A DNA stretch of 13,536 nucleotides, from the IMG/VR virus record IMGVR_UViG_2671180571_000005, positions 1 to 13,536 of that record. One strand, written 5' to 3'. The notes under the pieces were generated by a model that saw nothing but the letters and a program-made list of their open reading frames with translations, had not been told where the DNA came from and made no database searches. Numbering within the stretch: position 1 is the stretch's first letter; the number at the start of each line of letters is the position of its first letter. The translations under genes and the position numbers were made by a program. The DNA comes from a virus (lineage: Duplodnaviria > Heunggongvirae > Uroviricota > Caudoviricetes). Shown here in pieces: positions 1 to 13,536 of this stretch.

Positions 1-127
1 GATATTGTGTTTTTGTTTATTATCCGTCATTATGTTCTGTTAGTTTGTGACTAAGTTAACGCGTTATTAGTTATCTTATTCTCAAATTGTGTTACGATAA
101 TCCGAGCGGACAATCAGGAGAGGAAAG

Positions 128-2011
128 ATGAGCAAAGTAAAAATCGGTGAATTAATAAACTCACTTGTTAGCGATGTTGAGTCAATAGATAACTCTGACC
201 GTCCTCAAGGGGAAAAAACAAAAAAAATAAAAGCTGTTGCATTAAAATTTAAAAATGCATTATTTAATGACAAGCGAAAGTTTAGGGGGAAAGGATTAGA
301 AAAAAGAATTACAGCCAACACATTCAATGCCTATATGAGCAGGGCCAGAAAACGGTTTGATGATAAACTTCATCATAGCTTTGAAAAAAATATACATCGC
401 CTATCTGAAAAGTATCCTTTATATAATGAGGAGCTATTATCATGGCTTTCTCTACCTGCTGCCGATATTCGCCAGAGAATGTCAGCTTTACAGGCAAAAT
501 TAAAATTAATTCTCCCTTTATCAGAAGATTTATCTAATATCAGAATTGGTGATAACAAAAGTCATAATAAGTTATTAAAATTATCAAATAAATATAAAGA
601 GTGGCAATTCGCCATTTCTGATTTAACTAGCGATAACTGGAAAGATAAGCGCGATTATTTATATAAATTACTACAGCAAGGATCTGCCTTACTTGAGGAG
701 TTGAATCAGCTAAAAGTTAACCATGAGATTCTCTATCATCTTCAACTAAGCCCTGCCGAACGCGCATCTATCCAGCAACGATGGGCAGACGTTCTGCACA
801 ATAAGAAACGTAACGTGGTGGTCATTGATTACCCTAAATATATGCAAGCTATTTACGATATTATAAATAGCCCTGCTACATTAAATAATCTAAACACTCG
901 TTCAGGTATGGCTCCTTTGGCATTTGCACTTGCTGCATTGTCAGGAAGACGAATGATTGAGATTATGTATCAAGGTACATTTACTGTTTCTGGTAAGTAT
1001 ACCGTTGATTTTTTAGGCCAAGCAAAAAAAAGAACTTCTGATGATATAACCAGAAAAATATATACATTATGCGAAGCAAAAACATTTGTTTATTTAATAA
1101 ATGTACTTCGCTCATGCCCAGCAGCATCTGATTTTGATGATGTTGTTAAAGGTTATGGAGATAACGACACACGCTCTGAAAACGGACGGATTAATGCCAT
1201 ATTAGCAAAGGCTTTTAACCCGTGGGTTAAATCATTTTTCAAAGATGACCGCCGTGTTTATAAAGATAGTCGTGCTATTTATGCCCGTATTGCGTATGAA
1301 ATGTTTTTCCGCGTAGATCCTCGTTGGAAAAACGTAGATGAGGATGTTTTCTTTATGGAAATTTTAGGCCATGACGATGAAAACACTCAATTACACTATA
1401 AGCAATTCAAGCTGGCCAACTTCTCAAAGACATGGAGGCCAAATACTGGAAACGAAAATACCAGGCTGGAAGCATTGCAGCAGCTTGATGACGAAATGCC
1501 AGGATTCGCCAGAGGAGATGCCGGAGTTCGTCTGCATAACACAGTTAAGCAGCTGGTAGAGCAGGACCCCTCTATAAAAATCACGAACAGCACTCTAAGA
1601 GCATTCAAATTTAGCCCTACAATGATTAGTCGATACCTGGAATTTGCTGCTGATGCTCTGGGGCAATTTGTTGGCGAAAATGGACAATGGCAGCTGAAAA
1701 TAGATTCTCCAGAAATCGTTATGCCTGACGAAGAAGAGCTGGAAGCAATACCTGAACAGGCGGATGAATTATCAGAGGATGACGATCTGGATGACGACGA
1801 AATTGAGATAGAGGAAGAGAGCATAGAAGAACAGCAACCACCCGCGCCTTCTTCACCTGTATCTAAGCCGGTATTTAAGCCTGTGAGAAATATTGGTGAT
1901 GGCTCATACGTTGTTGAGTTTCATTATAATGGCCAGAATTATGCTTGGTCCGGCAGTGCAAACAGCCCTATGTCAGCAATGCAGTTAGCATGGCTGACAT
2001 ATTTCGGATAA
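128..2011 (+). CDS. telN: Protelomerase (telomere resolvase), TelN/TelK family
   Basis: 627-aa ORF with SD AGGAG (116-120) 7 nt upstream of the ATG. The translation (MSKVKIGELIN..., ...RAIYARIAYEMFF..., acidic C-terminal tail) is recognisably very similar to coliphage N15 TelN as I remember it. Recognised from memory, not searched. Confidence 0.85.
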   Translation: MSKVKIGELINSLVSDVESIDNSDRPQGEKTKKIKAVALKFKNALFNDKRKFRGKGLEKRITANTFNAYMSRARKRFDDKLHHSFEKNIHRLSEKYPLYNEELLSWLSLPAADIRQRMSALQAKLKLILPLSEDLSNIRIGDNKSHNKLLKLSNKYKEWQFAISDLTSDNWKDKRDYLYKLLQQGSALLEELNQLKVNHEILYHLQLSPAERASIQQRWADVLHNKKRNVVVIDYPKYMQAIYDIINSPATLNNLNTRSGMAPLAFALAALSGRRMIEIMYQGTFTVSGKYTVDFLGQAKKRTSDDITRKIYTLCEAKTFVYLINVLRSCPAASDFDDVVKGYGDNDTRSENGRINAILAKAFNPWVKSFFKDDRRVYKDSRAIYARIAYEMFFRVDPRWKNVDEDVFFMEILGHDDENTQLHYKQFKLANFSKTWRPNTGNENTRLEALQQLDDEMPGFARGDAGVRLHNTVKQLVEQDPSIKITNSTLRAFKFSPTMISRYLEFAADALGQFVGENGQWQLKIDSPEIVMPDEEELEAIPEQADELSEDDDLDDDEIEIEEESIEEQQPPAPSSPVSKPVFKPVRNIGDGSYVVEFHYNGQNYAWSGSANSPMSAMQLAWLTYFG

Positions 2012-2022
2012 ATCATACGGTA

Positions 2023-2055
2023 AAGGCACCGAATTATCGGTGCCTTGTTGTGTGG
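2023..2055. terminator. Stem-loop between convergent telN and Bro-N operon; possible bidirectional terminator
   Basis: Perfect 9-bp inverted repeat aaggcaccg (2023-2031) / cggtgcctt (2038-2046) with a 6-nt loop, 12 bp after the telN stop, followed on + by GTTGTGTGG. The U-tract is poor in both directions, so strength is uncertain. Confidence 0.45.
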
Positions 2056-2182
2056 CCTACCTCGCCTGCCCCCTGCAAAGGGTAGAAGTAACGGAGGAAA
2101 CGCGGCTGCAACCACAGACATCACCGCCCCGACTGCGAGGCTTCCCCTCACTAAGAAGGGCATAAATTCGGGCTGGCCAACC

Positions 2183-2956
2183 CTATTTATTAGTGATTTC
2201 TGCTGGCTTTAACTGCGCGGATAACTGCTCAAGTTTTTGAACTGCCAGTTCAAAATGCGCGGGTAACGCCTTTTCCAGATCAGAGTTAATATCGGTGATG
2301 GGCAAATCACCACACGACATACTCCGCCTACCCCCACGAACAACATCACGCAACAACTCTCGTTCATACGTGCGCATGTTCCCCAATGCCGACTCAGCAG
2401 CCGTCAAAATCCGGCGCAGTTCTGCCGTAATTGCTGGCAAATCATCAACAGTTATGGGGTTCGGGGATGGATTACGACACGCCCGACGCAAAGCTAACCA
2501 TACACCGCTAATCCAGGCATTTCGGTACTGAAAACTTTGTGCTATATCGTTAATCAGCCCTCGCAGATACTCTTTCTGCCTCCAGTTCAACGGCTCTGCT
2601 GCTCGCATTGGCTCAGGCTCGATGTAAACGTACTCTCCATTTTTGCGAATAGAGGGCAAGACTTCGTTCGTTACCCATTTGCGAAACCGCCAAGCTGTTG
2701 TGCCTTGCTTCACCGCGTCACGGCAGCGGAGAATGAGGGTGTAAAGACCTGATTCGCTGATGATATTGGCTTGACCTTGACGGCCTATGTTAAACATAGA
2801 TCGCTCATCTTCATCTAATCTAGCGATAGCTTGTGTGACATTCTGGATGCTTAAAGCATTGCAAATATCATTCGCCACAAACCACGGATCGCCGTTAATC
2901 ATCACTACACGTACCTGATGCTCTTCCTGAAAGGAAAAGACTGCTAACGCGCTCAT
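2183..2956 (-). CDS. Bro-N domain protein, putative antirepressor
   Basis: 257-aa ORF with strong SD AGGAGG 4-5 nt upstream. N-terminus FSFQEEHQVRVVMINGDPWFVANDICNALSI matches the Bro-N / phage antirepressor N-terminal signature (F.F....IRV....G.PWF.A.D....L). Start overlaps the stop of the upstream gene as ATGA. Last gene of an icd-like operon, the position occupied by ant in P1. Confidence 0.7.
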   Translation of the reverse strand: MSALAVFSFQEEHQVRVVMINGDPWFVANDICNALSIQNVTQAIARLDEDERSMFNIGRQGQANIISESGLYTLILRCRDAVKQGTTAWRFRKWVTNEVLPSIRKNGEYVYIEPEPMRAAEPLNWRQKEYLRGLINDIAQSFQYRNAWISGVWLALRRACRNPSPNPITVDDLPAITAELRRILTAAESALGNMRTYERELLRDVVRGGRRSMSCGDLPITDINSDLEKALPAHFELAVQKLEQLSAQLKPAEITNK

Positions 2957-3186
2957 TCAGCCTCCTTATCGCGCAGCAAGTGCGACGAGAGAGACGCAGA
3001 ATATCCCTGTGCTTCATGCGTTAACTCACACGCAATCTGCAGAAGTTTTCCAGCCTCTGAGAGGTAAATCGACGCCTCACAACTGGAGACTGTCCGATGG
3101 GCTGATGATACGAGCGCATAGACCTGAGCCAGACGTTCATCCAACGATTCCAGCAGGCCAACAGTGTTCATTTTTACCTGATTCAT
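2953..3186 (-). CDS. Hypothetical protein (77 aa), middle gene of the icd-like/antirepressor operon
   Basis: ORF with SD GAGGTG 5 nt upstream. ATGA overlap with the icd-like ORF upstream and with the Bro-N gene downstream (translational coupling on both sides). No recognisable motif. Confidence 0.55.
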   Translation of the reverse strand: MNQVKMNTVGLLESLDERLAQVYALVSSAHRTVSSCEASIYLSEAGKLLQIACELTHEAQGYSASLSSHLLRDKEAE

Positions 3187-3347
3187 GCAGCCACCTCGCG
3201 CACCGGAATACGGGCAGATAATACCAGGACAAACCGGCTGGCGAACTGGCGACGAGCTTCCCGTTCAGATGACGCGATAGTGGAAAGATGATGAATGTGG
3301 GACTTTTTGTCTGTGCGAACGACTGCCGCAAATTTGAATTTGAACAT
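3183..3347 (-). CDS. icd: Icd-like host cell division inhibitor (54 aa)
   Basis: Not in the supplied ORF track (below size cutoff). My translation: MFKFKFAAVVRTDKKSHIHHLSTIASSEREARRQFASRFVLVLSARIPVREVAA. The pattern F.F.AV.R.D....EREARR...F.L..AR.PV.EV is what I remember for Icd-like proteins of P1-type immI regions. SD GGAG 8 nt upstream; its stop overlaps the next start (ATGA). The 128-aa track ORF 3137..3523 in another frame is probably spurious. Confidence 0.55.
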   Translation of the reverse strand: MFKFKFAAVVRTDKKSHIHHLSTIASSEREARRQFASRFVLVLSARIPVREVAA

Positions 3348-3402
3348 GGTATGCACTCCGTTTTATTGGTCGTGCTACCACCAGAGTTGCGAATCTCTTT
3401 AT

Positions 3403-3482
3403 TGGTGGTAGCCCAGGCGGGGTTCGCAATACCGGTAAACGAAGAAACCGGCCCGACCGAAGTCAGCCCCACCTGAGCCACC
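3403..3482 (-). ncRNA. Candidate C4/CI/cA-type antisense immunity RNA (tRNA-like, 3' ...ACCACCA)
   Basis: On the minus strand the 5' end GGUGGCUCAGG (3482-3472) pairs with the 3' end CCUGGGCUACC (two G-U pairs), giving an acceptor-like stem ending ACCACCA. Internal UUCG-tetraloop hairpin CUGAC-UUCG-GUCGG and CCGGU-N10-ACCGG stem. Two segments (AUUGCGAA at 3430-3423, GCUACCACCA at 3412-3403) are complementary to repeated targets upstream (3552-3565) and downstream (3374-3395) on the same strand. Ends are approximate; folded by eye. Confidence 0.4.
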
Positions 3483-3513
3483 ATAATTCGGATATGCGCA
3501 GGTCTATACACAC

Positions 3514-3536
3514 AAAAAAACACGCTGGCGCGTGTT
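3514..3536 (-). terminator. Rho-independent terminator-like hairpin in the leader of the icd-like operon
   Basis: Minus strand reads AACACGC-GCCA-GCGUGUU followed by a run of U (plus-strand A-run 3514-3520). Sits between the upstream target repeat and the candidate RNA; could be the regulated attenuator or the terminator of the lipoprotein transcript. Confidence 0.4.
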
Positions 3537-3727
3537 GTGCGCTTCGTTTTGCCAGGATTGCGAAGTCCCGACTGCGGGATTTACCGCAGCGAGGTGACTT
3601 TACCTCCAAAACGACGCACACGTCAATAATTTGCAAAGACATTTTACCCCGTGACCAGTCACGGGGACAGGTGTTTTTATAGTTTGCTTGAACAAACGAT
3701 CAGAACATGAACAATGTTATTGTTCCG

Positions 3728-4540
3728 TTATAAGAAAGCCTCACGCGAACGGAACACCCACTCTAGCTGTACTGGATAAATTTCTCCCGTTTTAATATTT
3801 ATTATGCGCGCGGCTAATAACTCACCCATAAAAACCTGAGTTTTATGGCTCATATCTGACGGGTTAAAAATAGTAGGTGATGTTATATCAATATGATTGC
3901 TGCTTAACCCATTTATCTTTGCTAAATATTCAATTCTAAGGTCTTTTACATTAACATCTTTTGGCATTTGTCCTTTTATATCAATATCTGCCCATATTGT
4001 TTCAGGGTTCCCTTCATTTATTTGTGTACTACCAAAGATAATTTCGGCACCTAAAGTATTTAACACTTCTACATCAGCAGATATTCCAAAAGCATTAGCA
4101 CCAACATAGCTTCCATGCTTTGTTATTTCAGAGGAATCGACATGAAAACCATACCATCCAGACATATCTCGAGATGTTATCACGCTATCACTACCGCTAT
4201 TCTCAGCAAAATCACGGTTAAGATATGTTCCTGAGTATGTGATACTTCTAGGGATAGACAAACCTTGAGATGTTAAAACGTTGTTGTATGGCGCGTATGT
4301 TAATGAGTGAACGACATATCCACGCCATGAACCATCATCTATCTTTGATGCAATAATTCTATTAAATTCCTTACCTGTGAGTATTTTGCTGCTAAAATCA
4401 CCAACAGAGTTGATAGGTACTCTTTTTTCTTTTTCGAATTTATACTCAACGTCCGTTGATGCCTTATTATCATATTGATAAGTGCATCCAGATAATAACA
4501 AGATAGAGAGTAATAAAGCTGTTGTTTTTTTGTTACGCAT
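3728..4540 (-). CDS. Lipoprotein of unknown function (AT-rich moron)
   Basis: 270-aa ORF. N-terminus MRNKKTTALLLSILLLSGC has a basic n-region, hydrophobic core and lipobox L-S-G-C (signal peptidase II type). Local GC about 32-35 percent against about 48-50 percent in repA (hand count of 60-bp samples). AT-rich upstream region 4541-4629. Confidence 0.7.
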   Translation of the reverse strand: MRNKKTTALLLSILLLSGCTYQYDNKASTDVEYKFEKEKRVPINSVGDFSSKILTGKEFNRIIASKIDDGSWRGYVVHSLTYAPYNNVLTSQGLSIPRSITYSGTYLNRDFAENSGSDSVITSRDMSGWYGFHVDSSEITKHGSYVGANAFGISADVEVLNTLGAEIIFGSTQINEGNPETIWADIDIKGQMPKDVNVKDLRIEYLAKINGLSSNHIDITSPTIFNPSDMSHKTQVFMGELLAARIINIKTGEIYPVQLEWVFRSREAFL

Positions 4541-4629
4541 AATATTAACTTAACCTATTTGATTAATAATATGTTATTCCATTAAATAAAATATGCCGAG
4601 AACGGTTTAACTTGAACAGTCATCACTAT

Positions 4630-5037
4630 TCAATCAACTTTTTTAGCATCAGCCATACGCTTCAACCAGTAATCAACAATCGGTTGCTCATCCACAGAAT
4701 GTTTACCAGGTATAACTCGCCAGCTATCTTGCGAAAATCTGCCGTACTTACGCGGGAATAGGCCTTTCTTTATCTCCCGCCATGTACTAGGAAAACCATC
4801 CACAAAAGTACCAATTAACAGGAGAGGGACAAAAATCAGAGCTACAAACCATCGTGCAAGAAAGTGTTCAACAACAACATTTTCACCGTTGTAGTAATAC
4901 GCATACGCATCCAATATGCGAATTTTCCTTACCTTAAAAATAGCCTTATGCTGAGAACGACTTAACTTGATACGAATGTATCCCTTATCCAAAGGGGATT
5001 CGTATTCGTATGATTGAACAGCCATTTTTAACCCCAC
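4630..5037 (-). CDS. Hypothetical membrane protein (135 aa)
   Basis: ORF with one strongly hydrophobic segment (WFVALIFVPLLLIGTFV). Start overlaps the end of the upstream 108-aa gene by 10 bp. No recognisable catalytic motif. Confidence 0.5.
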   Translation of the reverse strand: MGLKMAVQSYEYESPLDKGYIRIKLSRSQHKAIFKVRKIRILDAYAYYYNGENVVVEHFLARWFVALIFVPLLLIGTFVDGFPSTWREIKKGLFPRKYGRFSQDSWRVIPGKHSVDEQPIVDYWLKRMADAKKVD

Positions 5038-5354
5038 TCACCATCAGCAAACAAAGCGTTATACTCTGACAATGGTAGACGGTTGCCCTCGATGTAGAGA
5101 TTCAGTTCATACTTCGTCTCCGGGTTTTCCTTGTCGGCTCGTTCCCAACGCTCAGCAGCCTTACGCGCCAATAATTCCACTGCTTTCAGATAATCCTCCG
5201 TACGGAACCAGCCAAAGATAAGGCCACGATCTGTTACAGCCCAGGCGACCTTTTTTTCTTCCTCCTGGATAGCCCTAATGCGTCGTTCGCATTCATCCCG
5301 GCAGAACTGCAGCTGACGGTAATCAAGTTTGTCCAAAAATGCAGTAGTAGACAT
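5028..5354 (-). CDS. Hypothetical protein (108 aa)
   Basis: ORF with SD GGGGAG about 7 nt upstream of the ATG; tightly packed between the small membrane ORF and the 135-aa gene. Function unknown. Confidence 0.5.
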   Translation of the reverse strand: MSTTAFLDKLDYRQLQFCRDECERRIRAIQEEEKKVAWAVTDRGLIFGWFRTEDYLKAVELLARKAAERWERADKENPETKYELNLYIEGNRLPLSEYNALFADGEWG

Positions 5355-5358
5355 ATTT

Positions 5359-5550
5359 TTACTCCCCGTTCACCGAAAATTCACGATAGAAACGTTTCCA
5401 CATACGATAAGTCTGCGCAAATTGTTCACCACGAAACATCGCCTTCCTGGCCTTCATGTTTTCCTTGTGAGACTTTCGGTCTATGAACCAAAACCATTGC
5501 TGGAACACACAAAGCAAGAGACACAAAGATAATATCCACTCATTACCCAT
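5359..5550 (-). CDS. Small hypothetical membrane protein (63 aa)
   Basis: I place the start at the internal ATG (5550) just upstream of the repA stop rather than the track's 102-aa extension, which overlaps repA by about 125 bp. Product MGNEWILSLCLLLCVFQQWFWFIDRK... has one hydrophobic helix. Weak SD. Fills the gap between repA and the 108-aa gene exactly. Confidence 0.35.
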   Translation of the reverse strand: MGNEWILSLCLLLCVFQQWFWFIDRKSHKENMKARKAMFRGEQFAQTYRMWKRFYREFSVNGE

Positions 5551-8500
5551 AGAAAGCGCCCTGCTCTTCGTAGCTGCATGAGCTATTCCCCGTAATGTAT
5601 TCACGTAACCGCCGCAGCTCATTGCTGGAAAGGTGATCCATGAACTCTGTGAGGTACAGGGATGCAAACGTCATAGCTATGCTGGCTGATGACCATGATG
5701 ACATAGTGGCCAACTCCTCACTGGAAAGCGCACTCATCGCCCAGGACTCAGGTACAGCCACTGGCAACACGGCCAAAGCCTCAGAAATTACTGAATGAGG
5801 GGCGTTTTGAACCTGCTCGTTTGTGGATCGCGTTTTATCATCCATATATATATTGAGATCCAAATCGCGATCCATTTCGATGGCTGTCTTCTCGGCTTTA
5901 CGCGTTTTTAGGGTTAGGCCATCTTTCTGACGCTGAACAAGAATATCCAGCATAAATGCCGCTGATTCAGGCTCAACAAAACGCAAGGTTGGACGCTTAT
6001 CGCCGTCTCTGCCGCGACGTTTACCTGTTTTAAGGCCAAGAGAGTCGCAAATGTTTTTAAACAACGCTTCCGGCACTTTAGGCTTCCCTTTTGGCGTCAT
6101 AAAACCACCAATGTGCAGAACGTTATTCAACAGGTCACGGCGTTCGGCTGTCATGAGGTTATCTCGAGCGAATTTGAGACGCTCCTGAGTCGCCTCGCCG
6201 GTCATAGTCTCAGGGTTGATACCGCAGTCGATAAAGTACTGCCGGAGAGTTGCTGATTTAAGCGCATAGAAACCGCGCGCCCCGACTTCAACAGTAGGAG
6301 TAGCTTTTACCTTGTGATCGATTATTCCAGGGAATTTAGTTTTAAAGACATCATCAGCCTGCTCGCGAGTCATCGCGGTCACTACAAAATATTGCCACTG
6401 TCCCGCCTGACGGTATGCGTAGGTAAAATTGATGGCTGCTTCTTCCCGGTCGTAACGACGAGCTGTTACCTCATCTAAAAGCATTGTTTCATAGCGGCGA
6501 ACTTTGTCTCGAGCACCATCGAAATAGAATTTCAGCGTGCCTTCTTCAACCGGTAGTTTCAGTTCGTTCTCAATATCCCAGCGGACAAGTTTTGCTTGTT
6601 CTTCAAGCGTCAGCGCGCGTTTTTTTAGCAGTTCTTCACGCTCTGATTCTTGTGGAGTTTCTGTATTGAGATGCAGATCCAGTGTCTGTTCCCACACAAT
6701 ATCCCGCGCTTCTTTACGCAGATCTTTACCGATATCATTCGCAGCATAATCGGTGGCCAGCGGCGATACCTTATAACCGTCGCTGTGCATGATGCAGATC
6801 ATGTTGCTGGCGTAGTCGTTACGCGCAGACGCTTCAATTGCGGCTGCTTTAATTTTCATCCTGGTAAAGTCGGTATTGGCCACCCCCATTGATATACGGT
6901 CGCCATCGAAAACGACATCCGTCAGTTCACCGTTCATGCCTGCGGTAGCAAGCAATGCCTGGGCGAATGCTCGTTCTATTTTTTGCGGGTCAGTTTCACG
7001 TTTTGCGCGAGCTTTATCAAAGCCGATAATAAATTCTTTTGCTGTACGGTCGCGGCGTAGCATTTGCACTGCGTCGCTGGGTACAACTTCACCACAGAAC
7101 ATGCCGAAATGACGGTCAAAATGTTTTTGCTCAATCGACACACCGGATGAAATAGACGGGCTATAAATCAGGCCGTCGTATTTTTTGACCATCTTTTTCG
7201 GTTGATTGGTAAATGCTTCAACTTCTGGCTCTGGTTTGTTTTTCTGGTTTACACACAGAAATTTCTTACCAGGAAAATGCATTCTCAGGGTGGCGGTCAC
7301 ATCTTCTGCAAAGGTGGAGCTGTCGGTGGCCAACATGATTTTTTCGCCATTCGATACAGCTTTCACCACCTCGGTCATAATGCGATCTTTTTCTGTATAA
7401 AAAACCCGGATTGGCTCACCTGTTTCGCGGTTGCGAACATCAACAGGTAATTCAATTACGTGGATCTGCAGCCATGCCGGTAAACCTAGTTCTTCACGGC
7501 GTTTCATAGCCAGTTCAGCCAGGTCAACCAGCAGATCGTTCGCATCAGCATCCACCATTATTGGGTGTTGTTCCGTTCTGGCCAGCGCGTCAATTAACGT
7601 ATTGAATACAGCCACCGGGTTTTCCATAGCCCGACCGGAAAGAACGGCACGTAGCCCTTGCGTGGCCTCGTCAAAGCCAAAATAGTCGTGCTGGCGCATC
7701 AATGGTTGCCAGCAGTTTTTAACAATCGAGTTTATGCAGATGGTCAGTTTACTGGCGTATGGAGCCATTTCCTGATAGCCAGGGTCCTGATAGTGCAGGA
7801 TATCGGCTTTTACACCTTTTCCTTCTGTCATCATTTCCCACAGGCCACCAATAAGGGAAACACGGTGAGCAACAGAGATACCACGTTCTGAGCTATGCAT
7901 TAAAGGTCGTAACAATCCAGTAGATTTGCCGGAACCCATACCAGCACGAACGATGACTATCCCCTGTAGTGATTGCACATACTTCAGGACGTCATCGGTC
8001 ATTACCGAAGTTTCAAAACGCTTATAGGTGATATGTTGAGGACGTTTATTGGGATCAGTTATTCGTTCGCTGAATGAGCGCGGAGCCTGGGCAATACGGC
8101 ACTTTTTATTCAGGCGACGGGCAATGTGGTCTTTTACCGTAGCGCGATAGATATTTTCCAGCCCAATTTCACGCAGGACGATGCAGAACATGTTAAATAA
8201 GTCTGACGGACTGTTAGGAACCGGACAGGTTAGCATGCCAATATCCACTGCTCTCAGCAGCTCTTTGGCAAAAGTACGACGGTTATCCCGCTTAATTGTC
8301 TTCAGGCGGTTGAGCGTCAGAGATAGCAAATCAGTGCCAGTTTTCAGGCGGTTTGCAGTTGCAAACAGTTGACGTGCTGTTTCACGAAGTCCACGTAGTT
8401 TGTGCAGGTCGTTGAAGTCACTGCACTCCATTTGCGGATCGTCTTCAAAAGTTGGATAGACGCAGCGGACATCGTTGAATTTCGATAAGATTTCATAGCC

Positions 8501-9538
8501 AGTCCGCAGGCCGGTATTCCCTTTTCCTTCTGTAGCTGATTTCCGGTCATTATCCAGTGCGCAGGTGATTTTTGCCGCCGGGTACATGTTTACCAGTTGT
8601 TCCACAACATGAACCATGTTGTTAGCGGATACAGCGACAACCACAGCGTCAAAGCGTTTATCTTTTTTCGTGGCAAGCCAGATGGATGCACCAGTAGCAA
8701 AACCTTCTGTAACAGCGATGTTTTGCGCCCCTTTCAGCTCACCGATAACAAAGCAGGCACCGACGAAATCGCCGCTGGTTACGGCACTGGTCTGGTATTT
8801 TCCACCTTGTTTGTCGATTCGCTGCCAACCAACAATACGACCATCGTAACGACCGTCCAGGTGAGCCAGAGGGATAGCCATATACGTGGTTGGCCCCCTG
8901 CTCCATTTTGCGCTGTCGTGACTGGTCACGCGACGCACATCACACGAATTAAAAACGTCACGAATACCTTTTTTAATCGCATATGGCCATGAGCCGTCTT
9001 CTGCAGGAGCATGTTCCCAAGCACTGTGGAATGCCAGCCATCCCAGCAAACGTTCATGGTCCATTTGGTTGTTTTTCAGGTCATTAATTCGTTTTTGTTC
9101 TTCACGGCGACGACGTGCTTCGGCCTGACGTTCTATTCTTGCCCGTTCTTCTTCCGGTTGTGCGACCACGGTCGCATTATTCCGTTGTTGCTCACGGCGA
9201 TATTCAGAAAACAGGAAGGAGAAACCGCTCCATGAGCCAGCATCGCTGCCTTTATGGACGAAGTTAATGAACGGGTAATCAATCCCTTTGCTGTGTTCCA
9301 GCCGGGAGTAAATTTCTACGCGTCCTTTGAGGCTCTTTTCGAGAGCTTCTGGGGATGTTTTATTGTATGAAGAGTAACGCTCAACACCCCCGCGAGGGTT
9401 GAGTTGGATGTTGTCGGAACAGGCAGACCAGTTGATACCAGCCATCTGTGCCAGCTCGGTTAGTTCATCCCGTGCTGCTTCAATTAGCGAGAACGGATCG
9501 CTGCCAAAGCGATCCGCATAGAAATCGTTTAATGTCAT
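5543..9538 (-). CDS. repA: Replication protein RepA (multidomain primase-helicase, N15 RepA / P4 alpha type)
   Basis: 1331-aa ORF. Primase-like EG(F/Y)ATG motif (VTEGFATGASIW) in the N-terminal half; Walker A GMGSGKST and Walker B-like FGFDEATQ in the central helicase region. Size and position (between telN/immA and cB) match N15 repA (about 1324 aa, as I recall). Confidence 0.85.
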   Translation of the reverse strand: MTLNDFYADRFGSDPFSLIEAARDELTELAQMAGINWSACSDNIQLNPRGGVERYSSYNKTSPEALEKSLKGRVEIYSRLEHSKGIDYPFINFVHKGSDAGSWSGFSFLFSEYRREQQRNNATVVAQPEEERARIERQAEARRRREEQKRINDLKNNQMDHERLLGWLAFHSAWEHAPAEDGSWPYAIKKGIRDVFNSCDVRRVTSHDSAKWSRGPTTYMAIPLAHLDGRYDGRIVGWQRIDKQGGKYQTSAVTSGDFVGACFVIGELKGAQNIAVTEGFATGASIWLATKKDKRFDAVVVAVSANNMVHVVEQLVNMYPAAKITCALDNDRKSATEGKGNTGLRTGYEILSKFNDVRCVYPTFEDDPQMECSDFNDLHKLRGLRETARQLFATANRLKTGTDLLSLTLNRLKTIKRDNRRTFAKELLRAVDIGMLTCPVPNSPSDLFNMFCIVLREIGLENIYRATVKDHIARRLNKKCRIAQAPRSFSERITDPNKRPQHITYKRFETSVMTDDVLKYVQSLQGIVIVRAGMGSGKSTGLLRPLMHSSERGISVAHRVSLIGGLWEMMTEGKGVKADILHYQDPGYQEMAPYASKLTICINSIVKNCWQPLMRQHDYFGFDEATQGLRAVLSGRAMENPVAVFNTLIDALARTEQHPIMVDADANDLLVDLAELAMKRREELGLPAWLQIHVIELPVDVRNRETGEPIRVFYTEKDRIMTEVVKAVSNGEKIMLATDSSTFAEDVTATLRMHFPGKKFLCVNQKNKPEPEVEAFTNQPKKMVKKYDGLIYSPSISSGVSIEQKHFDRHFGMFCGEVVPSDAVQMLRRDRTAKEFIIGFDKARAKRETDPQKIERAFAQALLATAGMNGELTDVVFDGDRISMGVANTDFTRMKIKAAAIEASARNDYASNMICIMHSDGYKVSPLATDYAANDIGKDLRKEARDIVWEQTLDLHLNTETPQESEREELLKKRALTLEEQAKLVRWDIENELKLPVEEGTLKFYFDGARDKVRRYETMLLDEVTARRYDREEAAINFTYAYRQAGQWQYFVVTAMTREQADDVFKTKFPGIIDHKVKATPTVEVGARGFYALKSATLRQYFIDCGINPETMTGEATQERLKFARDNLMTAERRDLLNNVLHIGGFMTPKGKPKVPEALFKNICDSLGLKTGKRRGRDGDKRPTLRFVEPESAAFMLDILVQRQKDGLTLKTRKAEKTAIEMDRDLDLNIYMDDKTRSTNEQVQNAPHSVISEALAVLPVAVPESWAMSALSSEELATMSSWSSASIAMTFASLYLTEFMDHLSSNELRRLREYITGNSSCSYEEQGAFYG
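5800..5910. other. Candidate intragenic replication origin near the 3' end of repA
   Basis: Three copies of GCGTTTT (5802, 5830, 5902), alternating AT run CATATATATATT (about 5843-5854) and three GATC sites within 47 bp (5826, 5857, 5869), about 300 bp from the repA stop. N15 ori is reported to lie inside the 3' part of repA (from memory). Confidence 0.3.
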
Positions 9539-9589
9539 TTTTTAGCCATTCCATGCGAATTATGTTTTTTCGGGTTGAAAAAATCCGCA

Positions 9590-9652
9590 GGAGCAGCCAC
9601 AATAAACGCATCTTGAATTGACGGAATCCGTCGCGTTATTGTGGCTGCTTCC
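9590..9652. repeat. Long imperfect inverted repeat in the repA upstream region
   Basis: Arm 1 ggagcagccacaataaacgc (9590-9609) and arm 2 gcgttattgtggctgcttcc (9633-9652); perfect 13-bp core gcagccacaataa / ttattgtggctgc; 23-bp spacer. Confidence 0.6.
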
Positions 9653-9660
9653 TGAAAAGG

Positions 9661-9689
9661 ACCCGAGTTTGCCGACTCGGGTTTTTTTT
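9661..9689 (+). terminator. Rho-independent terminator, strongest on + strand (opposite to repA and cB)
   Basis: acccgagt (9661-9668) / actcgggt (9675-9682), 6-nt loop, followed by T8 on the + strand. On the minus strand the tail is only CCUUUUUC, so it may also weakly terminate the cB transcript. Confidence 0.6.
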
Positions 9690-9783
9690 CGTCTTTTTTC
9701 TGCTGCTGTAACCTGAGTCAACCCACAGAACATATGCCCTGCATTAAACCAGATTTACAGCAAACAATAAACCCCGTATTAAG

Positions 9784-10380
9784 TCATCTACCCTCAACCA
9801 TGAATGATTTGATCGTTCCGACTATTTGGTGAACAAATTCAAGATCGCTTTTCCTGAAGATAGCGCGTTGTGAATTTGTTCCGTCCAGATAGTAATTTTC
9901 ATCATCAAAACGGGCCAGGCGCTGGATGGTGATATTTCCTGCAGTATCACGAACCAGAACATCCTCGCCGGGGACCAGTTCCAGCGCAGAATCGACCAGG
10001 AGAAAATCGCCAGGCTGATAGTTTCCCTGCGCCAGATTGCTGATAGTTAACGCATAAACAGTATTGCGCTGGCTGATGAATGGCAGGAATCGCTCAGTAT
10101 TTGGAACCTGTCCTGGCTTCCACTCTTCATCAGGTCCACTTTCAGTTGTGCCAATAACAGGAATGCGATCAGGGTCATATTCTGTCCCATACAGCACCCA
10201 ATGCACTGGCTTGCGTAAGCATTTAGCCAGGGCAATACCTATCTCCAGTGACGGCATTACGTCGCCACGTTCTAAGTTTTGGACGCCTGCAATAGAGATA
10301 TCGACAGCCTCAGCAACTTCTCGCAACGTCAGCTTCATCTCTAAACGGCGTGCTTTCAGTCGTTCGCCTCGTGTTTTCAT
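9784..10380 (-). CDS. cB: Prophage repressor, lambda CI-like (N15 CB-type): N-terminal HTH plus S24 peptidase-like C-terminal domain
   Basis: 198-aa ORF. N-terminal HTH (LTLREVAEAVDISIAGVQNLERG); C-terminal region PGDFLLVD...GEDVLVRD...ITIQRL resembles the LexA/CI S24 fold. Divergent from cro with operator-like palindromes between them. Confidence 0.8.
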   Translation of the reverse strand: MKTRGERLKARRLEMKLTLREVAEAVDISIAGVQNLERGDVMPSLEIGIALAKCLRKPVHWVLYGTEYDPDRIPVIGTTESGPDEEWKPGQVPNTERFLPFISQRNTVYALTISNLAQGNYQPGDFLLVDSALELVPGEDVLVRDTAGNITIQRLARFDDENYYLDGTNSQRAIFRKSDLEFVHQIVGTIKSFMVEGR

Positions 10381-10402
10381 AGCTTAATCATAAATGATCT
10401 TC

Positions 10403-10444
10403 TTATAGCTGGCTATAAAATTTATTTATTATAGCTGGCTTTAA
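10403..10444. promoter_or_regulatory. Two operator-like palindromes in the cB-cro divergent promoter region
   Basis: TTATAGC-TG-GCTATAA (10403-10418) and TTATAGC-TG-GCTTTAA (10429-10444), 26 bp centre to centre, in an AT-rich intergenic region containing TATAAT-like hexamers for both divergent genes. Confidence 0.5.
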
Positions 10445-10471
10445 TTGTTGTTTATTGTTTATAATAACAAC

Positions 10472-10693
10472 ATGAAACCAGAAGAACTTATTCGCCATTT
10501 TGGCAGTGTAGAAAAAGCAGCGGCAGGGGTAGGTGTAACACCCGGAGCTGTTTACCAATGGTTAACCGCTGGAGAGATTCCTTCATTGCGGCAAAGCGAT
10601 ATTGAAGTTCGTACTGCTTATAAGCTGAAGAGTGACTTTACAACTCGGCGGGTAAAGCAGTCGATTAAGGAGAGTCGTAAGCGTGGAGCTTGA
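10472..10693 (+). CDS. cro: Cro-like repressor (73 aa)
   Basis: Small HTH protein (GVGVTPGAVYQWLTAGEIP) divergent from the repressor gene. I use the ATG at 10472; the track's start at 10445 is a TTG inside the operator region. A TATAAT at 10460-10465 ends 7 bp before the ATG, so the mRNA may be leaderless. Confidence 0.65.
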   Translation: MKPEELIRHFGSVEKAAAGVGVTPGAVYQWLTAGEIPSLRQSDIEVRTAYKLKSDFTTRRVKQSIKESRKRGA

Positions 10694-11393
10694 GTATATA
10701 CGCAGCTGCGTCTCTACGGCATTGGCTGATGTTCATTATCGCCAGCGTGGCATTCTGGAGGTCCAGCTTGAGCAGATGCGTCTCGGTAGATCAGGACGGT
10801 TTAACAATAAACCAGTCCGGTCAATCAGTGTAGGGGATGATAACTCATACGAAGTGTCCGTTCCTGCTGAGCCGGTTAGATTCCACCAGGGGAAAACATT
10901 TAAACAATCATCAATGTTGCTCACTGATATTGATTTTCAGAGCGCCAGCTGGCGCAGGGCTATTGGTCAGTTGAATAACGAGGAATCAGCCTGGCTTTAT
11001 TATTGCTACGGATGCAAGCCTGATTACAACAATGATGTGATTGTTTGTCAGTGGTTATGGCTTGATTTTCTGGTTGCTCATTCGGGGGCCGGCTTTAAAA
11101 AAATGAAGGCCTCCACGAAAAAAGCCATGCGGAAATTGATTTATTACGCGGCACAGCAGGTTAAATCAGAACTTACGTGTGCTGAGGCAGTTGATGAGAG
11201 AGAACAGGACAGGCATCTGAGTTTTCTACTGAATATATCTATTGATAGCTGGAGACAAGATTATAAAGAACGCTGGCTTTTAATTAAGTCGCGATGTCTG
11301 AGCTTAAATCGAACTGCATTATTAAATGCGGCGGAGAAGCGCAGTGAAATCATCAAACGCCATCGGGCAGGAAGTGCCATTCTGCCTTTGTAA
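10683..11393 (+). CDS. Putative late-gene antiterminator Q-like protein (positional call)
   Basis: 236-aa ORF with GTG start and SD AAGGAG about 10 nt upstream, overlapping the cro stop. Sits where N15 has Q (cB-cro-Q) and is of similar size. I see no unambiguous Q zinc-finger motif, so the functional call is by synteny only. Confidence 0.4.
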   Translation: MELEYIRSCVSTALADVHYRQRGILEVQLEQMRLGRSGRFNNKPVRSISVGDDNSYEVSVPAEPVRFHQGKTFKQSSMLLTDIDFQSASWRRAIGQLNNEESAWLYYCYGCKPDYNNDVIVCQWLWLDFLVAHSGAGFKKMKASTKKAMRKLIYYAAQQVKSELTCAEAVDEREQDRHLSFLLNISIDSWRQDYKERWLLIKSRCLSLNRTALLNAAEKRSEIIKRHRAGSAILPL

Positions 11394-11646
11394 ACAAGTT
11401 ATGTTCAGGAAACCGTCGAAGCCAGAATTAAGATATTCAGGGGTAAGAAATGAATATGTTATCTGGTGTCCAACTTGTGGTTACAGGACACGACCAGATA
11501 GTAATAAGCAGTCTGTAATTGCCGATTGGTATTTATCAAATCAGCCAGGTAATAAGCATATAGAAAATCTTTGGATTAAGCGTTACTTGGAAATCAGAGA
11601 GGGTGCGACCGTGGTCGCACAAGAAAATGAAAATAACGCCATTTAA
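11326..11646 (+). CDS. Hypothetical small protein with CxC / CxxC cysteine pairs; start uncertain
   Basis: Track ORF of 106 aa overlapping the Q-like gene end. Alternative starts: GTG 11344 (SD GGAG 7 nt upstream) or ATG 11401 (no SD). Contains FCLC and CPTCG, a possible small zinc-binding motif. Confidence 0.4.
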   Translation: MRRRSAVKSSNAIGQEVPFCLCKQVMFRKPSKPELRYSGVRNEYVIWCPTCGYRTRPDSNKQSVIADWYLSNQPGNKHIENLWIKRYLEIREGATVVAQENENNAI

Positions 11647-11656
11647 GCAGGGGCCG

Positions 11657-11830
11657 ATGACGCATGATGAAGCAGAGCGTCTTTCAGATACTTATCGGCG
11701 GCGTGGTAAGAAAGTTCTGGTTGTTCGTTCTGATTTTTTAGGTGATGGATATTGCGTTTATGTTCATTTACCTGAATTAGAAAGAACGCCAAAACCATCC
11801 AGAACATATCAACAGAAAATTTGGGTATAG
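11657..11830 (+). CDS. Hypothetical small protein (57 aa)
   Basis: I use the ATG at 11657 (AGGGG 4 nt upstream, 10 nt after the previous stop) rather than the overlapping track start at 11603. No recognisable motif. Confidence 0.35.
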   Translation: MTHDEAERLSDTYRRRGKKVLVVRSDFLGDGYCVYVHLPELERTPKPSRTYQQKIWV

Positions 11831-11853
11831 ATAAACGTTGAGGAGAATTATTC

Positions 11854-12453
11854 GTGACTAATCAGATTATTTACGACAGGAAACGGTCTGATGTAATGAT
11901 TGACCTTGAAACAATGGGTACTAACACATGTGCTCCAATTGTTTCTATCGGGGCAGTGTTTTTTTCTCCAGAAAGTGAGGAATTAGGTCCTACTTTTTAT
12001 GTGCCAGTGAATCTCAGAAGCTCGATGTTGAATGGTGGTGTCGCCGATGGTGATACCATTTTATGGTGGTTGAAACAGAGCAAGGAAGCCAGAGCCGCAA
12101 TTTGTACTAATGATGCCCTTGATATTAAGGATGCACTTTTTGAATTATCACACTTTATTACTTGCCATGCATGTAATTTAAAAAAATTGAAAGTATGGGG
12201 AAATGGAGCAACTTTCGATAATGTAATTTTACGCGGTGCTTATGAGCGCGTTGGCTTAGTCTGTCCGTGGGAATGTTTTAATGATCAGGATGTTCGAACA
12301 ATCGTTAATCTTGGTCAGTTTATTGGTTTTAATCCTAAAAAAGATATGCCATTTGATGGCGAACGACACAATGCCCTGGCTGATGCTATTCATCAGGCTA
12401 AATATGTATCCGCAATTTTCTCCCGTCTTGTAAAAGGGCAAGGAGAATCGTAA
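11854..12453 (+). CDS. DEDDh-family 3'-5' exonuclease (DnaQ/RNase T-like fold)
   Basis: GTG start with SD AGGAG 8 nt upstream. Exo I motif MIDLETMG (D-x-E), Exo II motif GNGATFDNVIL, Exo III motif HNALADAIH (H-x4-D). Confidence 0.7.
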   Translation: MTNQIIYDRKRSDVMIDLETMGTNTCAPIVSIGAVFFSPESEELGPTFYVPVNLRSSMLNGGVADGDTILWWLKQSKEARAAICTNDALDIKDALFELSHFITCHACNLKKLKVWGNGATFDNVILRGAYERVGLVCPWECFNDQDVRTIVNLGQFIGFNPKKDMPFDGERHNALADAIHQAKYVSAIFSRLVKGQGES

Positions 12454-12872
12454 TGGCAAAGGCTTTTACACCAGAACAGAGAGAAGAACTGAATAAACAA
12501 ATTGTGGAACTCGTGCGCCTGAATGGACGAGGAACGGTTAGGCAACTTGCGGATGAAACTGGTATTAGCCGGTGTGCTGTTAGTCGTTTATCAAGAGAGC
12601 TTGCTGCCAGTGGTGATTTGTATATCTCTGGCTCCGGGATATTTCTGTCTGCACAAGCGCGCAAGGACTGGCAAAACGCCCGCAAAAAGCTATCAAGAGT
12701 AAAGCCGAAGAAATCGGTAGTGGTTGATCCAGACCTTATCTGGTCATTACCTGACGGAGAAATACGTCGTTACGACAGGCGCTTGAACATGATTTGTCAC
12801 GATTGCCGGAAGAGCGAAGTTATGCAGCGTGTGCTGGCGTTTTATCAGGGAAATTTTCAGGAGGTGGCGTAG
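12453..12872 (+). CDS. HTH DNA-binding protein (139 aa)
   Basis: ATG overlaps the exonuclease stop (TAATG); SD AAGGAG upstream. N-terminal helix-turn-helix-like segment TVRQLADETGISRCAVSRLSRELAASG; basic central region. Confidence 0.6.
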   Translation: MAKAFTPEQREELNKQIVELVRLNGRGTVRQLADETGISRCAVSRLSRELAASGDLYISGSGIFLSAQARKDWQNARKKLSRVKPKKSVVVDPDLIWSLPDGEIRRYDRRLNMICHDCRKSEVMQRVLAFYQGNFQEVA

Positions 12873-13162
12873 TGAATATCGACACGACAATAACGCTCGA
12901 TACGCTCCTAAATTCCGGCCTGGCACTTCTCGGTTGGCTTTACATCATGTCCCGTACATGGCGATGGCTGGGTTCCATTTTCCTGAAACAGTGGAAAAAA
13001 CGGCGCAAACAGGAACTACGCCAGAAGGCATTAGAAGCGTTCTATGACGCATTTGAACTTAGCAGCATTGAATCTGGCACAACAGCCAGGATAGCGACAA
13101 AAGGCGACCTGATGATAGTGATGTTCCGACAGGAGAGAGCAGAGAAAGGGGAATCAGCATGA
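12872..13162 (+). CDS. Small membrane protein (96 aa from GTG)
   Basis: Track ORF 12794..13162. I place the start at GTG 12872, which overlaps the upstream TAG (TAGTG) and has SD AGGAGG 7 nt upstream. One hydrophobic helix LLNSGLALLGWLYIM followed by a basic stretch KQWKKRRKQ. Confidence 0.45.
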   Translation: MNIDTTITLDTLLNSGLALLGWLYIMSRTWRWLGSIFLKQWKKRRKQELRQKALEAFYDAFELSSIESGTTARIATKGDLMIVMFRQERAEKGESA

Positions 13163-13536
13163 AATTTTACAAATTTTCTGAGTTGGTGAATCGCATTTTG
13201 TCCAACAACCACAGCCATCGTCGCGATATGGATGTAACAATCGTTGTTCATTCGCCTGGCAGCATTGGTTCAACACCTTCAGTTGAGGTTCAGTCAATTC
13301 ACGCTGGTTTTGATTGGGATTCCGGGAAAGTGCTTATTTTCCCATCACAGCCACTGACCACGCTAACACCAGAACAGATTACTGATATCACTGATAGTGT
13401 GCGCAAAGGTCAGTCTTGGCACGCATATCAGGAATATAAAAATCATAAAGAGCAGTTGGAAAAATTGTCGATTGAGTTGGAATCAGCCAAAAATCACATA
13501 GCAGAACTGGAAGCCAAACCTGTAAGCCAAACTTAC
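13159..13536 (+). CDS. Hypothetical protein, 3'-truncated by the window end
   Basis: ATG at 13159 overlaps the previous stop (ATGA); open to the last base of the window (126 codons, no stop). Not in the track because incomplete. The last part looks coiled-coil-like (EQLEKLSIELESAKNHIAELEAK). Confidence 0.5.
   Translation, partial: MKFYKFSELVNRILSNNHSHRRDMDVTIVVHSPGSIGSTPSVEVQSIHAGFDWDSGKVLIFPSQPLTTLTPEQITDITDSVRKGQSWHAYQEYKNHKEQLEKLSIELESAKNHIAELEAKPVSQTY

Follow-up and report, generated by a model that had tools for sequence, protein, structure and literature searches.

The viral record IMGVR_UViG_2671180571_000005 (Duplodnaviria; Heunggongvirae; Uroviricota; Caudoviricetes) carries a run of closely packed genes downstream of the antiterminator gene Q. 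Here, we analyze positions 1 to 13,536 of this record, a stretch of 13,536 nucleotides henceforth termed the window, and focus on its last four genes, g1 to g4 (11854-13536). An initial annotation, made from the nucleotide sequence alone, had described them as a translationally coupled module composed of a DEDDh exonuclease, a helix-turn-helix (HTH) protein, a small membrane protein and a further open reading frame (ORF), possibly with a role in defense or anti-defense. Our comparisons indicate with good confidence that the four genes do not constitute a dedicated system and that the block consists of three separately circulating accessory cassettes juxtaposed in one lineage. The finding mainly documents a swappable accessory slot in N15-like phage-plasmids that is filled from a lambdoid/P1-like gene pool; only g1 stands out, and the remainder is mostly ordinary.

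Organization of the g1-g4 block

Between 11400 and 13536, the window is ~96% identical to the Escherichia phages PhiR46_1 and YDC107_1 (Ravinvirus, N15-type genomes), and its telN, repA, cB, cro and Q genes follow the gene order of N15. By identity and gene order, it classifies as a linear, N15-like telomere phage-plasmid, with g1-g4 in the right arm just after Q. Two small ORFs, one Lar-like and one belonging to the protein family phrog_1212, lie between Q and the following genes:

11854-12453, plus strand: g1, predicted stand-alone DEDDh 3'-5' exonuclease of the Rv2179c-like/T4 DexA family (PF16473, 9e-67); GTG start at 11854, TAA stop at 12451-12453, Shine-Dalgarno (SD) motif GAGGAG at 11840-11845, 8 nt before the start; 23-nt gap after the phrog_1212 ORF
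12453-12872, plus strand: g2, DUF977 winged-helix protein (PF06163, 1.1e-29 over residues 1-136; phrog_142, 'Ren-like', 2.7e-42); ATG start at 12453, with A12453 common to the g1 stop (TAATG); SD motif AAGGAG at 12440-12445
12872-13162, plus strand: g3, DUF4752 protein with one N-terminal hydrophobic helix as a possible anchor (PF15944, 1.5e-40; phrog_667, 9.4e-42); GTG start at 12872, with G12872 common to the g2 stop TAG at 12870-12872 (TAGTG); SD motif AGGAGG at 12859-12864
13159-13536, plus strand: g4, first 126 residues of a modular protein of 219-249 aa, running off the window end (phrog_6026, 1.3e-53; phrog_368, 8.3e-30); ATG start at 13159-13161, overlapping the g3 stop TGA at 13160-13162 (ATGA); SD motif AGGGG at 13147-13151

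The three overlaps and an SD motif for each gene, 7-8 nt upstream of the respective start, can be read directly from the sequence, as the initial annotation had stated. The start of g3 is backed by PHROG profile alignments, and that of g1 is ambiguous: GenBank depositors and gene callers place it at GTG 11854 (199 aa, strong SD), RefSeq PGAP at ATG 11896 (185 aa, without a good SD), and 106 of 117 g1 homologues begin four residues before M15. Tight packing is already present from cro onward, which makes the left boundary at 11854 arbitrary. The cro and Q genes overlap by 11 nt and the Lar-like and phrog_1212 ORFs by 20 nt, while Q is followed by a 7-nt gap if the Lar-like ORF starts at 11401 and overlaps it if the start is at 11326.

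Overlapping stops and starts with an SD motif for each gene could be taken to mean that g1-g4 form one coherent system, with a nuclease effector, a DNA-binding regulator or sensor and a membrane component, and the combination of nuclease, HTH protein and putative membrane protein superficially resembles some defense operons. In compactly packed phage genes, however, such overlaps are ordinary and no sign of a dedicated system. Overlaps of 1-4 nt are the norm in this genome and its relatives. In lambdoid prophages, an unrelated DUF551 gene likewise overlaps the g1 homologue by one base, and translational coupling therefore arises with whichever gene happens to be next.

Distribution and mosaicism of the four genes

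We compared gene neighborhoods across 80 viral loci with g1 relatives, 70 lambdoid DUF977 loci and 79 DUF4752 loci, with up to 8 kb fetched on each side of the exonuclease genes. Sixteen of the 80 exonuclease loci represent the window lineage (96-98% identical); g2 is present in all 16, g3 and g4 in 14. At the 64 loci outside this lineage (55-68% identical), no DUF977 gene was found near the exonuclease within the fetched DNA of up to 8 kb per side. Three of these 64 loci have a DUF4752 match, and one of the three also a g4-type match. By sequence, the genes immediately next to the exonuclease outside the lineage form 14 clusters on the downstream and 23 on the upstream side; most common are ssb upstream (24 loci) and, downstream, small proteins read as Xis- or AlpA-like. 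The closest non-N15 homologues of g1 (84% and 71% identical) end lambdoid early-left operons, after RdgC, Ead_Ea22 and DUF551 genes, and at the 71% loci the next genes after the exonuclease are a small ORF and an integrase.

The other genes of the block have neighborhoods of their own. At the lambdoid DUF977 loci, a g1 homologue occurs in 17 of 70, located 6-7.7 kb away on the opposite strand, i.e., at the position of the leftward early operon, and 30 of 70 have a phrog_1212 homologue at a distance of 2-6 kb downstream. DUF977 is thereby assigned to a different, divergent operon of lambdoid prophages. Among the DUF4752 loci, 67 of 79 have a g4-type match, directly after the g3 homologue in 44 and 1-2 kb upstream in 23, and one P1-like phage shows the order Ea22-like gene, DUF4752, g4 homologue. 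As judged from these loci, only the DUF4752 gene (g3) and the g4-type gene travel together.

Composition and pairwise identity also change along the block. GC content is 37-40% in g1 and steps to 46-49% in g2-g3. Identity to PhiR46_1 dips to 75-86% inside g3 (12880-13100), flanked by 97-100%, and positions 12871-13511 of the window are 95.8% identical to the P1-like phage vB_EcoM-Ro157c2YLVW; the g3-g4 stretch appears to be a patch exchanged recently by recombination between different types of phage-plasmid. Two close relatives (L016 and L018) keep g1-g2 and have other genes in place of g3-g4. Among 5,426 complete E. coli genomes, the whole block is present in 17 and pieces of it in 2,271; the 15 whole-block matches listed are all plasmid-sized records. 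The initial annotation had named one outcome as speaking against its proposal, namely that the block is the conserved core of all N15-like genomes with known housekeeping roles. The block is no such core: N15, phiKO2 and PY54 have no homologue of g2-g4, N15 and phiKO2 none of g1 either, and in N15 the genes 41-45.1 occupy the space of g1-g4.

These distributions bear directly on the one-system explanation. The four genes are not found together outside a single lineage at at least 96% identity, g3-g4 are swapped in L016 and L018 while g1-g2 stay, breaks in composition and identity fall at gene junctions, no defense-system model matches, and the membrane assignment of g3 is weak. We consider a coherent four-gene system disfavored on present evidence and very improbable. 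The functional module proposed initially is likewise not borne out, given a g1-g2 adjacency in just 16 of 80 loci, the GC step and the recombination patch over g3-g4. We instead favor three cassettes, which would be (1) g1, (2) g2 and (3) the pair g3 and g4, probably drawn from a gene pool shared with the lambdoid 'ea/exo-xis' and 'ren/nin' regions and the P1-like pmg region.

Predicted expression of the block

No credible plus-strand promoter or terminator was found between 10300 and 13536, including the stretch between Q and g4, and an Rfam search of the same interval at E <= 0.1 returned no RNA family. The four genes are very probably co-transcribed, in agreement with the co-expression proposed initially. 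The records of N15 and phiKO2 place a late promoter and terminator behind gene 51, where they closely follow a partition site, and this stretch is conserved in PhiR46_1, ~2.5 kb past the window end. The description of g1-g4 as 'post-Q' holds for position only, as the genes lie upstream of the late promoter position. Because they are placed between Q and the Q-dependent late promoter, we read them as a distal extension of the CB-repressed cro-Q early operon. Transcription would start at the CB-repressed early promoter once the phage has infected a cell or been induced, and would read through cro, Q, the Lar-like ORF and the phrog_1212 ORF into the variable slot; g1-g4 would then be delayed-early and not Q-dependent late genes, and silent in the lysogen. 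Proteomics of a lysogen of a related telomere phage detected nine phage proteins, with no exonuclease named among them (PMC12042878), which may be counted as indirect support for such silence.

A terminator-like hairpin is present at 13001-13023 on the minus strand, opposite g3, with an 8-bp stem and a TTTTTT run after it. The hairpin could be fortuitous or could end antisense transcription from downstream convergent toxin-antitoxin genes.

The exonuclease g1

The product of g1 fits PF16473 nearly end to end (224.6 bits against a cut-off of 27; residues 13-188 correspond to model positions 2-176 of 177) and matches phrog_255 'exonuclease' (2.3e-79). As the initial annotation had noticed, all DEDDh motifs are in place: D17, E19, D122, H172 and D177 align to the catalytic residues of T4 DexA and of an EcD-like protein introduced below (Exo I D..E, Exo II D, Exo III H....D) and are each retained by 114-117 of the 117 close homologues. 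By sequence, the sole solved relative is T4 DexA (8KEL, E 1.8e-7 in phmmer), and a profile of g1 homologues aligned to DexA with hhalign at a probability of 98.5% (E 1.6e-15, 140 columns). On these alignments, g1 is predicted to be a catalytically intact DEDDh 3'-5' exonuclease and classifies as a new member of the known DexA/Rv2179c exonuclease family.

Kinship to the two namesakes of the family differs in depth. To Rv2179c, the founder of PF16473, g1 is related at the family level only; it fits PF16473 as a whole, and a phmmer search with g1 did not recover the Rv2179c structure at E <= 1. With T4 DexA, g1 shares the DEDDh fold family, a stand-alone architecture, a phage origin and, if its predicted timing holds, early expression. 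Identity is ~29% over the N-terminal 123 aligned residues, and g1 is without the extra loops and the C-terminal tail of DexA. DexA also serves a virulent phage with hydroxymethylcytosine (hmC) DNA, whereas N15-like phages are temperate and showed no hmC pathway in the regions examined.

The g1 family is very common, with 678 phage records for the g1 query and 1,588 for the EcD-like query, and 2,642 related database proteins are named only '3'-5' exonuclease' or 'exoribonuclease'. A link of the g1-type exonuclease to the hairpin-telomere lifestyle was considered and rejected: many virulent phages have the PF16473 type, and it is common in integrated lambdoid prophages, with ssb, xis-like genes and int as neighbors. 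The public name of g1, 'exodeoxyribonuclease VIII', is a misnomer, as the protein matches PF16473 and no other nuclease family. For 'LygF', a name that also appears in public records, a literature search yielded only lysozyme-g and Salmonella genome notes, and no function. Several genes of this region are unannotated or misnamed in reference records (besides these two names, 'Ea22'), so that part of the gain of this work is in annotation.

The exonuclease slot of N15-like phages

The region that holds g1-g4 has conserved flanks. On the left, Q, the Lar-like ORF and the phrog_1212 ORF are retained, on the right gp46 and gp47, in N15, MStein-2023a, phiKO2 and the window lineage and in part in PY54, while the content between the flanks differs. 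The right backbone is proposed to continue from gp46 and gp47 through a RelE/ParE toxin-antitoxin pair, gp50, gp51, the partition site and the Q-dependent late promoter to a methylase and the lysis genes. Every N15-like lineage examined has a DEDDh exonuclease in the slot, and these enzymes come from two families. N15 gp41 and phiKO2 gp39 belong to PF00929 (RNase_T-type), PY54 ORF51 and g1 to PF16473. In line with this pattern, an independent preprint on seven N15-like phage-plasmids notes a predicted DEDDh protein in each of them and no complete defense system (10.1101/2025.09.12.675607). PY54 ORF51 is a true homologue of g1 (60% identical). N15 gp41 and phiKO2 gp39 share with g1 the slot after Q, the Lar-like and the phrog_1212 ORFs and the DEDDh superfamily, but no detectable sequence kinship beyond the Exo I motif, the only motif that the PF00929 and PF16473 slot enzymes have in common (hhalign probability 4.7%).

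In two lineages, the exonuclease is accompanied by a zinc (Zn) ribbon. N15 gp41 (12161-13075 of locus L003) has a fused C-terminal Zn-ribbon (Lar_restr_allev, 2.1e-12). In PY54, ORF52 (4539-4979 of locus L271), the next gene after the exonuclease ORF51 (4043-4615), is a separate protein that is 41% identical to the gp41 Zn-ribbon domain (E 4e-25). That the Zn-ribbon partner is kept in N15 and PY54 while the exonuclease family is swapped suggests that the two may work together. A Zn-ribbon of the gp41-C/PY54-ORF52 type was found neither in the window nor in PhiR46_1, YDC107_1, pCAVP367-48 or phiKO2, and the Lar-like ORF upstream of the slot has no pairwise similarity to the gp41 C-terminal domain.

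The arrangement raises the alternative that the slot serves early anti-restriction or anti-defense, with the exonuclease, Lar-like Zn-ribbon proteins and downstream orphan methylases acting together to shield phage DNA, on entry or during replication, from host restriction or other immunity that targets nucleic acids. All N15-like lineages have a Lar-like ORF directly ahead of the slot, and N15 gp41 joins a DEDDh exonuclease to a Lar_restr_allev-type Zn-ribbon in one protein; with PY54 ORF52, this pattern of fusion and fission outlasts a change of exonuclease family. Early expression would fit a need for anti-restriction, and phiKO2, PY54 and the window lineage all have orphan methyltransferases within the slot or close to it. 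Yet the window lineage and phiKO2 are without the gp41-C/ORF52-type Zn-ribbon, the Lar-like ORF stays under the Pfam cut-off and is dissimilar to the gp41 domain, and membership in the 'Lar' family implies hardly more than a Zn-ribbon fold. The neighbors of the exonuclease at other phage loci, ssb at 24 and xis-like genes at several, are not anti-restriction genes. We also know of no published case of a DEDDh exonuclease that alleviates restriction. Overall, we regard this explanation as quite unlikely.

Comparison with defense exonucleases

Anti-phage effectors have recently been described among the stand-alone DEDDh exonucleases of prophages (EcD/HREX and TONDO), hence our interest in g1. 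T4 DexA scavenges host DNA and supports intron homing, and EcD, an E. coli DexA homologue termed 'HREX', digests 5-hydroxymethylcytosine (5hmC) DNA and confers protection against T4 on E. coli cells that express it from a plasmid (PMC12153337). TONDO enzymes are ISG20-like DEDDh exonucleases on prophages and plasmids that trim the 3' ends of RNA phages and block these phages; they often carry an auxiliary domain or have an adjacent ORF, and one needs an adjacent small ORF (PMC13344964). A role for g1, alone or with g2 as an auxiliary, in nuclease-based exclusion of or defense against other phages along these models, through degradation of their nucleic acid, has several points in its favor. 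The protein falls into the family of DexA and EcD (the hhalign match above; 34% identity to the EcD-like protein), of which EcD is protective against T4 (PMC12153337), TONDO systems also reside on prophages and plasmids and can depend on a neighboring small ORF (PMC13344964), and g1 is borne on a phage-plasmid and followed by a translationally coupled gene.

For the comparison with EcD, we used a 189-aa ORF rebuilt from viral contigs via the published forward primer; it is 'EcD-like' and not a verified EcD, with Ala at residue 78 as stated for EcD (PMC12153337). The forward cloning primer matches 189-aa ORFs on six IMG/VR viral contigs (L243, L248, L258, L259, L261 and L264), and the published reverse primer has one extra A relative to these sequences. 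The 'bacterial' anti-T4 exonuclease EcD (PMC12153337) therewith appears to be prophage-borne. Like g1 (185-199 aa), the EcD-like protein is a short, stand-alone member of the family on viral (prophage) contigs, and the two are 34% identical (E 2.7e-30).

They differ at the positions by which PMC12153337 sets apart HREX enzymes as 5hmC-specific and dimeric only. EcD has Ala at the tetramerization position (A78) and keeps the Trp and the acidic residue, whereas g1 retains the tetramerization Asp (DexA D90 corresponds to D93 in MAFFT and hhalign alignments), has Phe for the Trp and lacks a confidently alignable acidic residue. At the D93 position, close homologues of g1 have D (34), E (28), A (15) or S (12). 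The 5hmC recognition Trp of DexA (W152) corresponds to F142 in g1, and DexA D169, outside the part aligned with confidence, pairs with Q155 or with an F of g1 depending on the alignment. By the Asp and Trp determinants of PMC12153337, g1 would not qualify as an HREX-type 5hmC enzyme. As to TONDO, g1 is similar in being a stand-alone DEDDh exonuclease of a prophage or plasmid. The adjoining, overlapping gene g2 may or may not be a counterpart of the TONDO auxiliary, its pairing with g1 being confined to one lineage. The 'exonuclease plus Zn-ribbon' arrangement of N15 and PY54, absent from the window lineage, resembles TONDO. TONDO was found, however, with ISG20 (cd06127/RNase_T-type) queries, and g1 scores under the PF00929 cut-off (E 0.086, 13.8 bits against 24) and is not of the ISG20/RNase_T type, a separation that is drawn from the description of TONDO only.

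Searches against PADLOC-DB v2 gave only a weak generic 'DEDDh, Cas-associated' match for g1 (E 9e-4) and marginal HTH matches for g2, with none for g3 and g4; the upstream ORFs, N15 gp41, phiKO2 gp39, PY54 ORF51 and ORF52 and the EcD-like protein returned generic DEDDh matches only, plus PDC-S48 for the PF00929 enzymes. The lack of a specific match agrees with the initial annotation, which had refrained from assigning the genes to any described system. Together with the unmatched HREX residues, the dissimilarity to ISG20, the location of g1 in a repressed early operon, where it showed no separate promoter, and the confinement of the g1-g2 adjacency to one lineage, it makes phage exclusion by g1 unlikely in our view. 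Since g1 fails or cannot be scored on the EcD/HREX and TONDO hallmarks, a defense or counter-defense role of the exonuclease is best kept as a minority possibility. The idea of defense or anti-defense voiced initially thus survives in part, for the exonuclease alone, and is disfavored in its four-gene form. If g1 or N15 gp41 did restrict phages or counter immunity, this would constitute a single-gene immunity function for phage-plasmids of E. coli, Shigella and Klebsiella.

Probable role of the accessory slot

The most likely role of g1 appears to be the processing of 3' ends or the breakdown of nucleic acid in the course of lytic growth. The enzyme would remove nucleotides at free 3' ends of DNA, and possibly of RNA, in lytic development, and would contribute to end-processing in recombination or replication or, as T4 DexA does, to nucleotide scavenging. 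A DEDDh-superfamily exonuclease may be the one function that all N15-like lineages examined retain in the slot, while g2-g4 would be dispensable modulators with no function assigned. Taken as a whole, including the accessory slot in an early operon, the cassettes, the timing and the role, we lean toward this account as the probable one, with less assurance than we attach to the rejection of a dedicated four-gene system.

Several points weigh against it. Proteins g1 and g2 could still interact, as adjacency within a single lineage neither proves nor excludes a joint function. The substrate of g1 is also ambiguous in view of its relatives: Rv2179c, a chromosomal protein of Mycobacterium tuberculosis, is said to be a 3'-5' exoribonuclease acting on RNA, whereas DexA acts on DNA. 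That every lineage examined has an exonuclease in the slot, and that in N15 and PY54 this enzyme is fused to or sits beside a conserved Zn-ribbon, suggests a role more specific than that of a general helper. Silence in the lysogen is based on missing consensus promoters and on the proteome of a different telomere phage with a different exonuclease. Finally, homologues or analogues of stand-alone DEDDh enzymes act in anti-phage defense (PMC12153337; PMC13344964).

A further reading proposes that what telomere phage-plasmids conserve is a constantly filled 'exonuclease slot' and not the four-gene block, and that this slot is under selection for a specific nuclease function, either HREX/TONDO-type immunity against modified-DNA phages or RNA phages or early counter-defense alongside Lar-like proteins, with g1, perhaps aided by g2, as a new specificity variant. 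We give this proposal a rather small chance.

The accompanying proteins g2, g3 and g4

The assignment of g2 as an HTH protein holds. Besides DUF977, Pfam gave several weak winged HTH matches, and an AlphaFold model places a winged helix at residues 7-66 (pLDDT ~90) and is of low confidence in the C-terminal half. Foldseek returned generic MntR/MarR/IclR-type domains only (best E 2.4e-3), solved structures gave marginal HTH matches only, and NCBIfam gave HTH matches far under the cut-off; g1, g3 and g4 had no NCBIfam match. Although g2 is a full-length member of DUF977/phrog_142 with a Ren-like stretch near its end, it differs from the 96-aa lambda Ren. Residues 112-131 of g2 align to Ren 73-92 (50% identity, pairwise E 9e-6), and similarity is confined to these 20 residues; the N-terminal winged helix has no alignment, and g2 sits after Q and not after replication genes. 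We retrieved 747 homologues, and among the 120 listed the source names are 'DUF977 family protein', 'phage protein' or 'hypothetical protein'.

Residues 7-89 of g3 match positions 1-83 of the 84 in PF15944, and Pfam and PHROG matches together cover residues 1-93. Its initial description as a small membrane protein stands as far as a hydrophobic stretch is present (LLNSGLALLGWLYIM, followed by a basic cluster). Its Kyte-Doolittle mean of 1.58 over 15 residues and 1.33 over 19 is borderline, and membrane anchoring is only plausible.

The g4 fragment has no Pfam family match. Full-length relatives measure 219 aa without a Pfam match (PhiR46_1) or 249 aa with a C-terminal DUF551 domain (3.5e-24; pCAVP367-48), and the layout probably consists of an N-domain, a coiled-coil stretch and a variable C-domain. 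Relatives are annotated as Ea22, PmgU or DUF551, names that come from depositors and PHROG-level annotation only. An identity of g4 as Ea22 was rejected: a BLASTP comparison with lambda Ea22 gave no significant similarity (E 0.36), and neither the fragment nor the 219-aa PhiR46_1 homologue matches Ead_Ea22 (PF13935). The likeness is limited to the presumed domain layout of the g4 relatives, which resembles the three-domain organization given for Ea22 (PMC10834534). In the relative L018, the different gene at the position of g4 does match Ead_Ea22.

Conserved backbone and further features of the window

The features outside the g1-g4 block are as follows:

128-2011: protelomerase (telN)
5543-9538, minus strand: repA/primase
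9784-10380, minus strand: cB repressor
10445-10693: cro
10683-11393, plus strand: Q antiterminator (Pfam Phage_antiter_Q, 1.3e-84), the upstream anchor of the conserved backbone
11326-11646, plus strand: Lar-like Zn-ribbon ORF (phrog_6795 'Lar-like restriction alleviation', 1.5e-45, residues 5-101), overlapping the 3' end of Q
11603-11620, no strand assigned: 18-bp palindrome GTGCGACCGTGGTCGCAC, matching the dispersed plasmid-partition (centromere) site of N15-like prophages
11627-11830, plus strand: phrog_1212 ORF, small, function not assigned (phrog_1212, 9.8e-25, with the profile beginning at the M of MKITPF)

The product of Q is 67% identical to N15 gp40, 66.5% to the phiKO2 protein and 31% to that of PY54. 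For the Lar-like ORF, the start is uncertain (ATG 11326, GTG 11344 or ATG 11401) and the match to Pfam Lar_restr_allev, at 21.1 bits, lies under the cut-off of 28.6; its product is conserved in N15 (78%, unannotated there), phiKO2 (73%) and PY54 (52%). The phrog_1212 ORF, the last backbone gene before the variable slot, is 55% identical to an unannotated N15 ORF, 50% to its phiKO2 and 45% to its PY54 (ORF47) counterpart. A relationship to NinH was rejected after comparison with lambda NinH showed no similarity. In the N15 record NC_001901 (L003), ~400 bp between genes 40 and 41 are unannotated, and this stretch encodes the Lar-like (78%) and phrog_1212 (55%) homologues at L003 11729-11971 and 11955-12152 (~35728-35970 and ~35954-36151 of the record).

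The palindrome at 11603-11620 lies inside the Lar-like ORF, ~230 bp upstream of g1, and has two mismatches to a site annotated three times as 'putative plasmid partitioning site' in phiKO2. A second copy of the partition type, GTGCGACCACGGTCGCAT, is located at 9160-9177 inside repA. Copies occur at equivalent positions in N15 and PhiR46_1, and in relatives another one directly precedes the late promoter. Partition protein bound at the two sites in the window might influence transcription of genes in the g1-g4 region.

In the interval between telN and repA, a BRO-N domain antirepressor-like gene and an Ash-family gene (2183-2956 and 3137-3523, minus strand) match the antirepressor region of N15. 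The same interval contains a 270-aa ORF (3728-4540, minus strand) with no Pfam or PADLOC match, at the locus where Klebsiella telomere phages bear telocin toxin-immunity cassettes. The annotation of PhiR46_1 does not show this ORF. Ten plasmid records contain it, N15-like plasmids of E. coli, E. fergusonii and E. albertii among them; identity is 95-99% or above in seven records and ~60% in three Enterobacter/Klebsiella plasmids, of which two are very small (3.7-4.4 kb).

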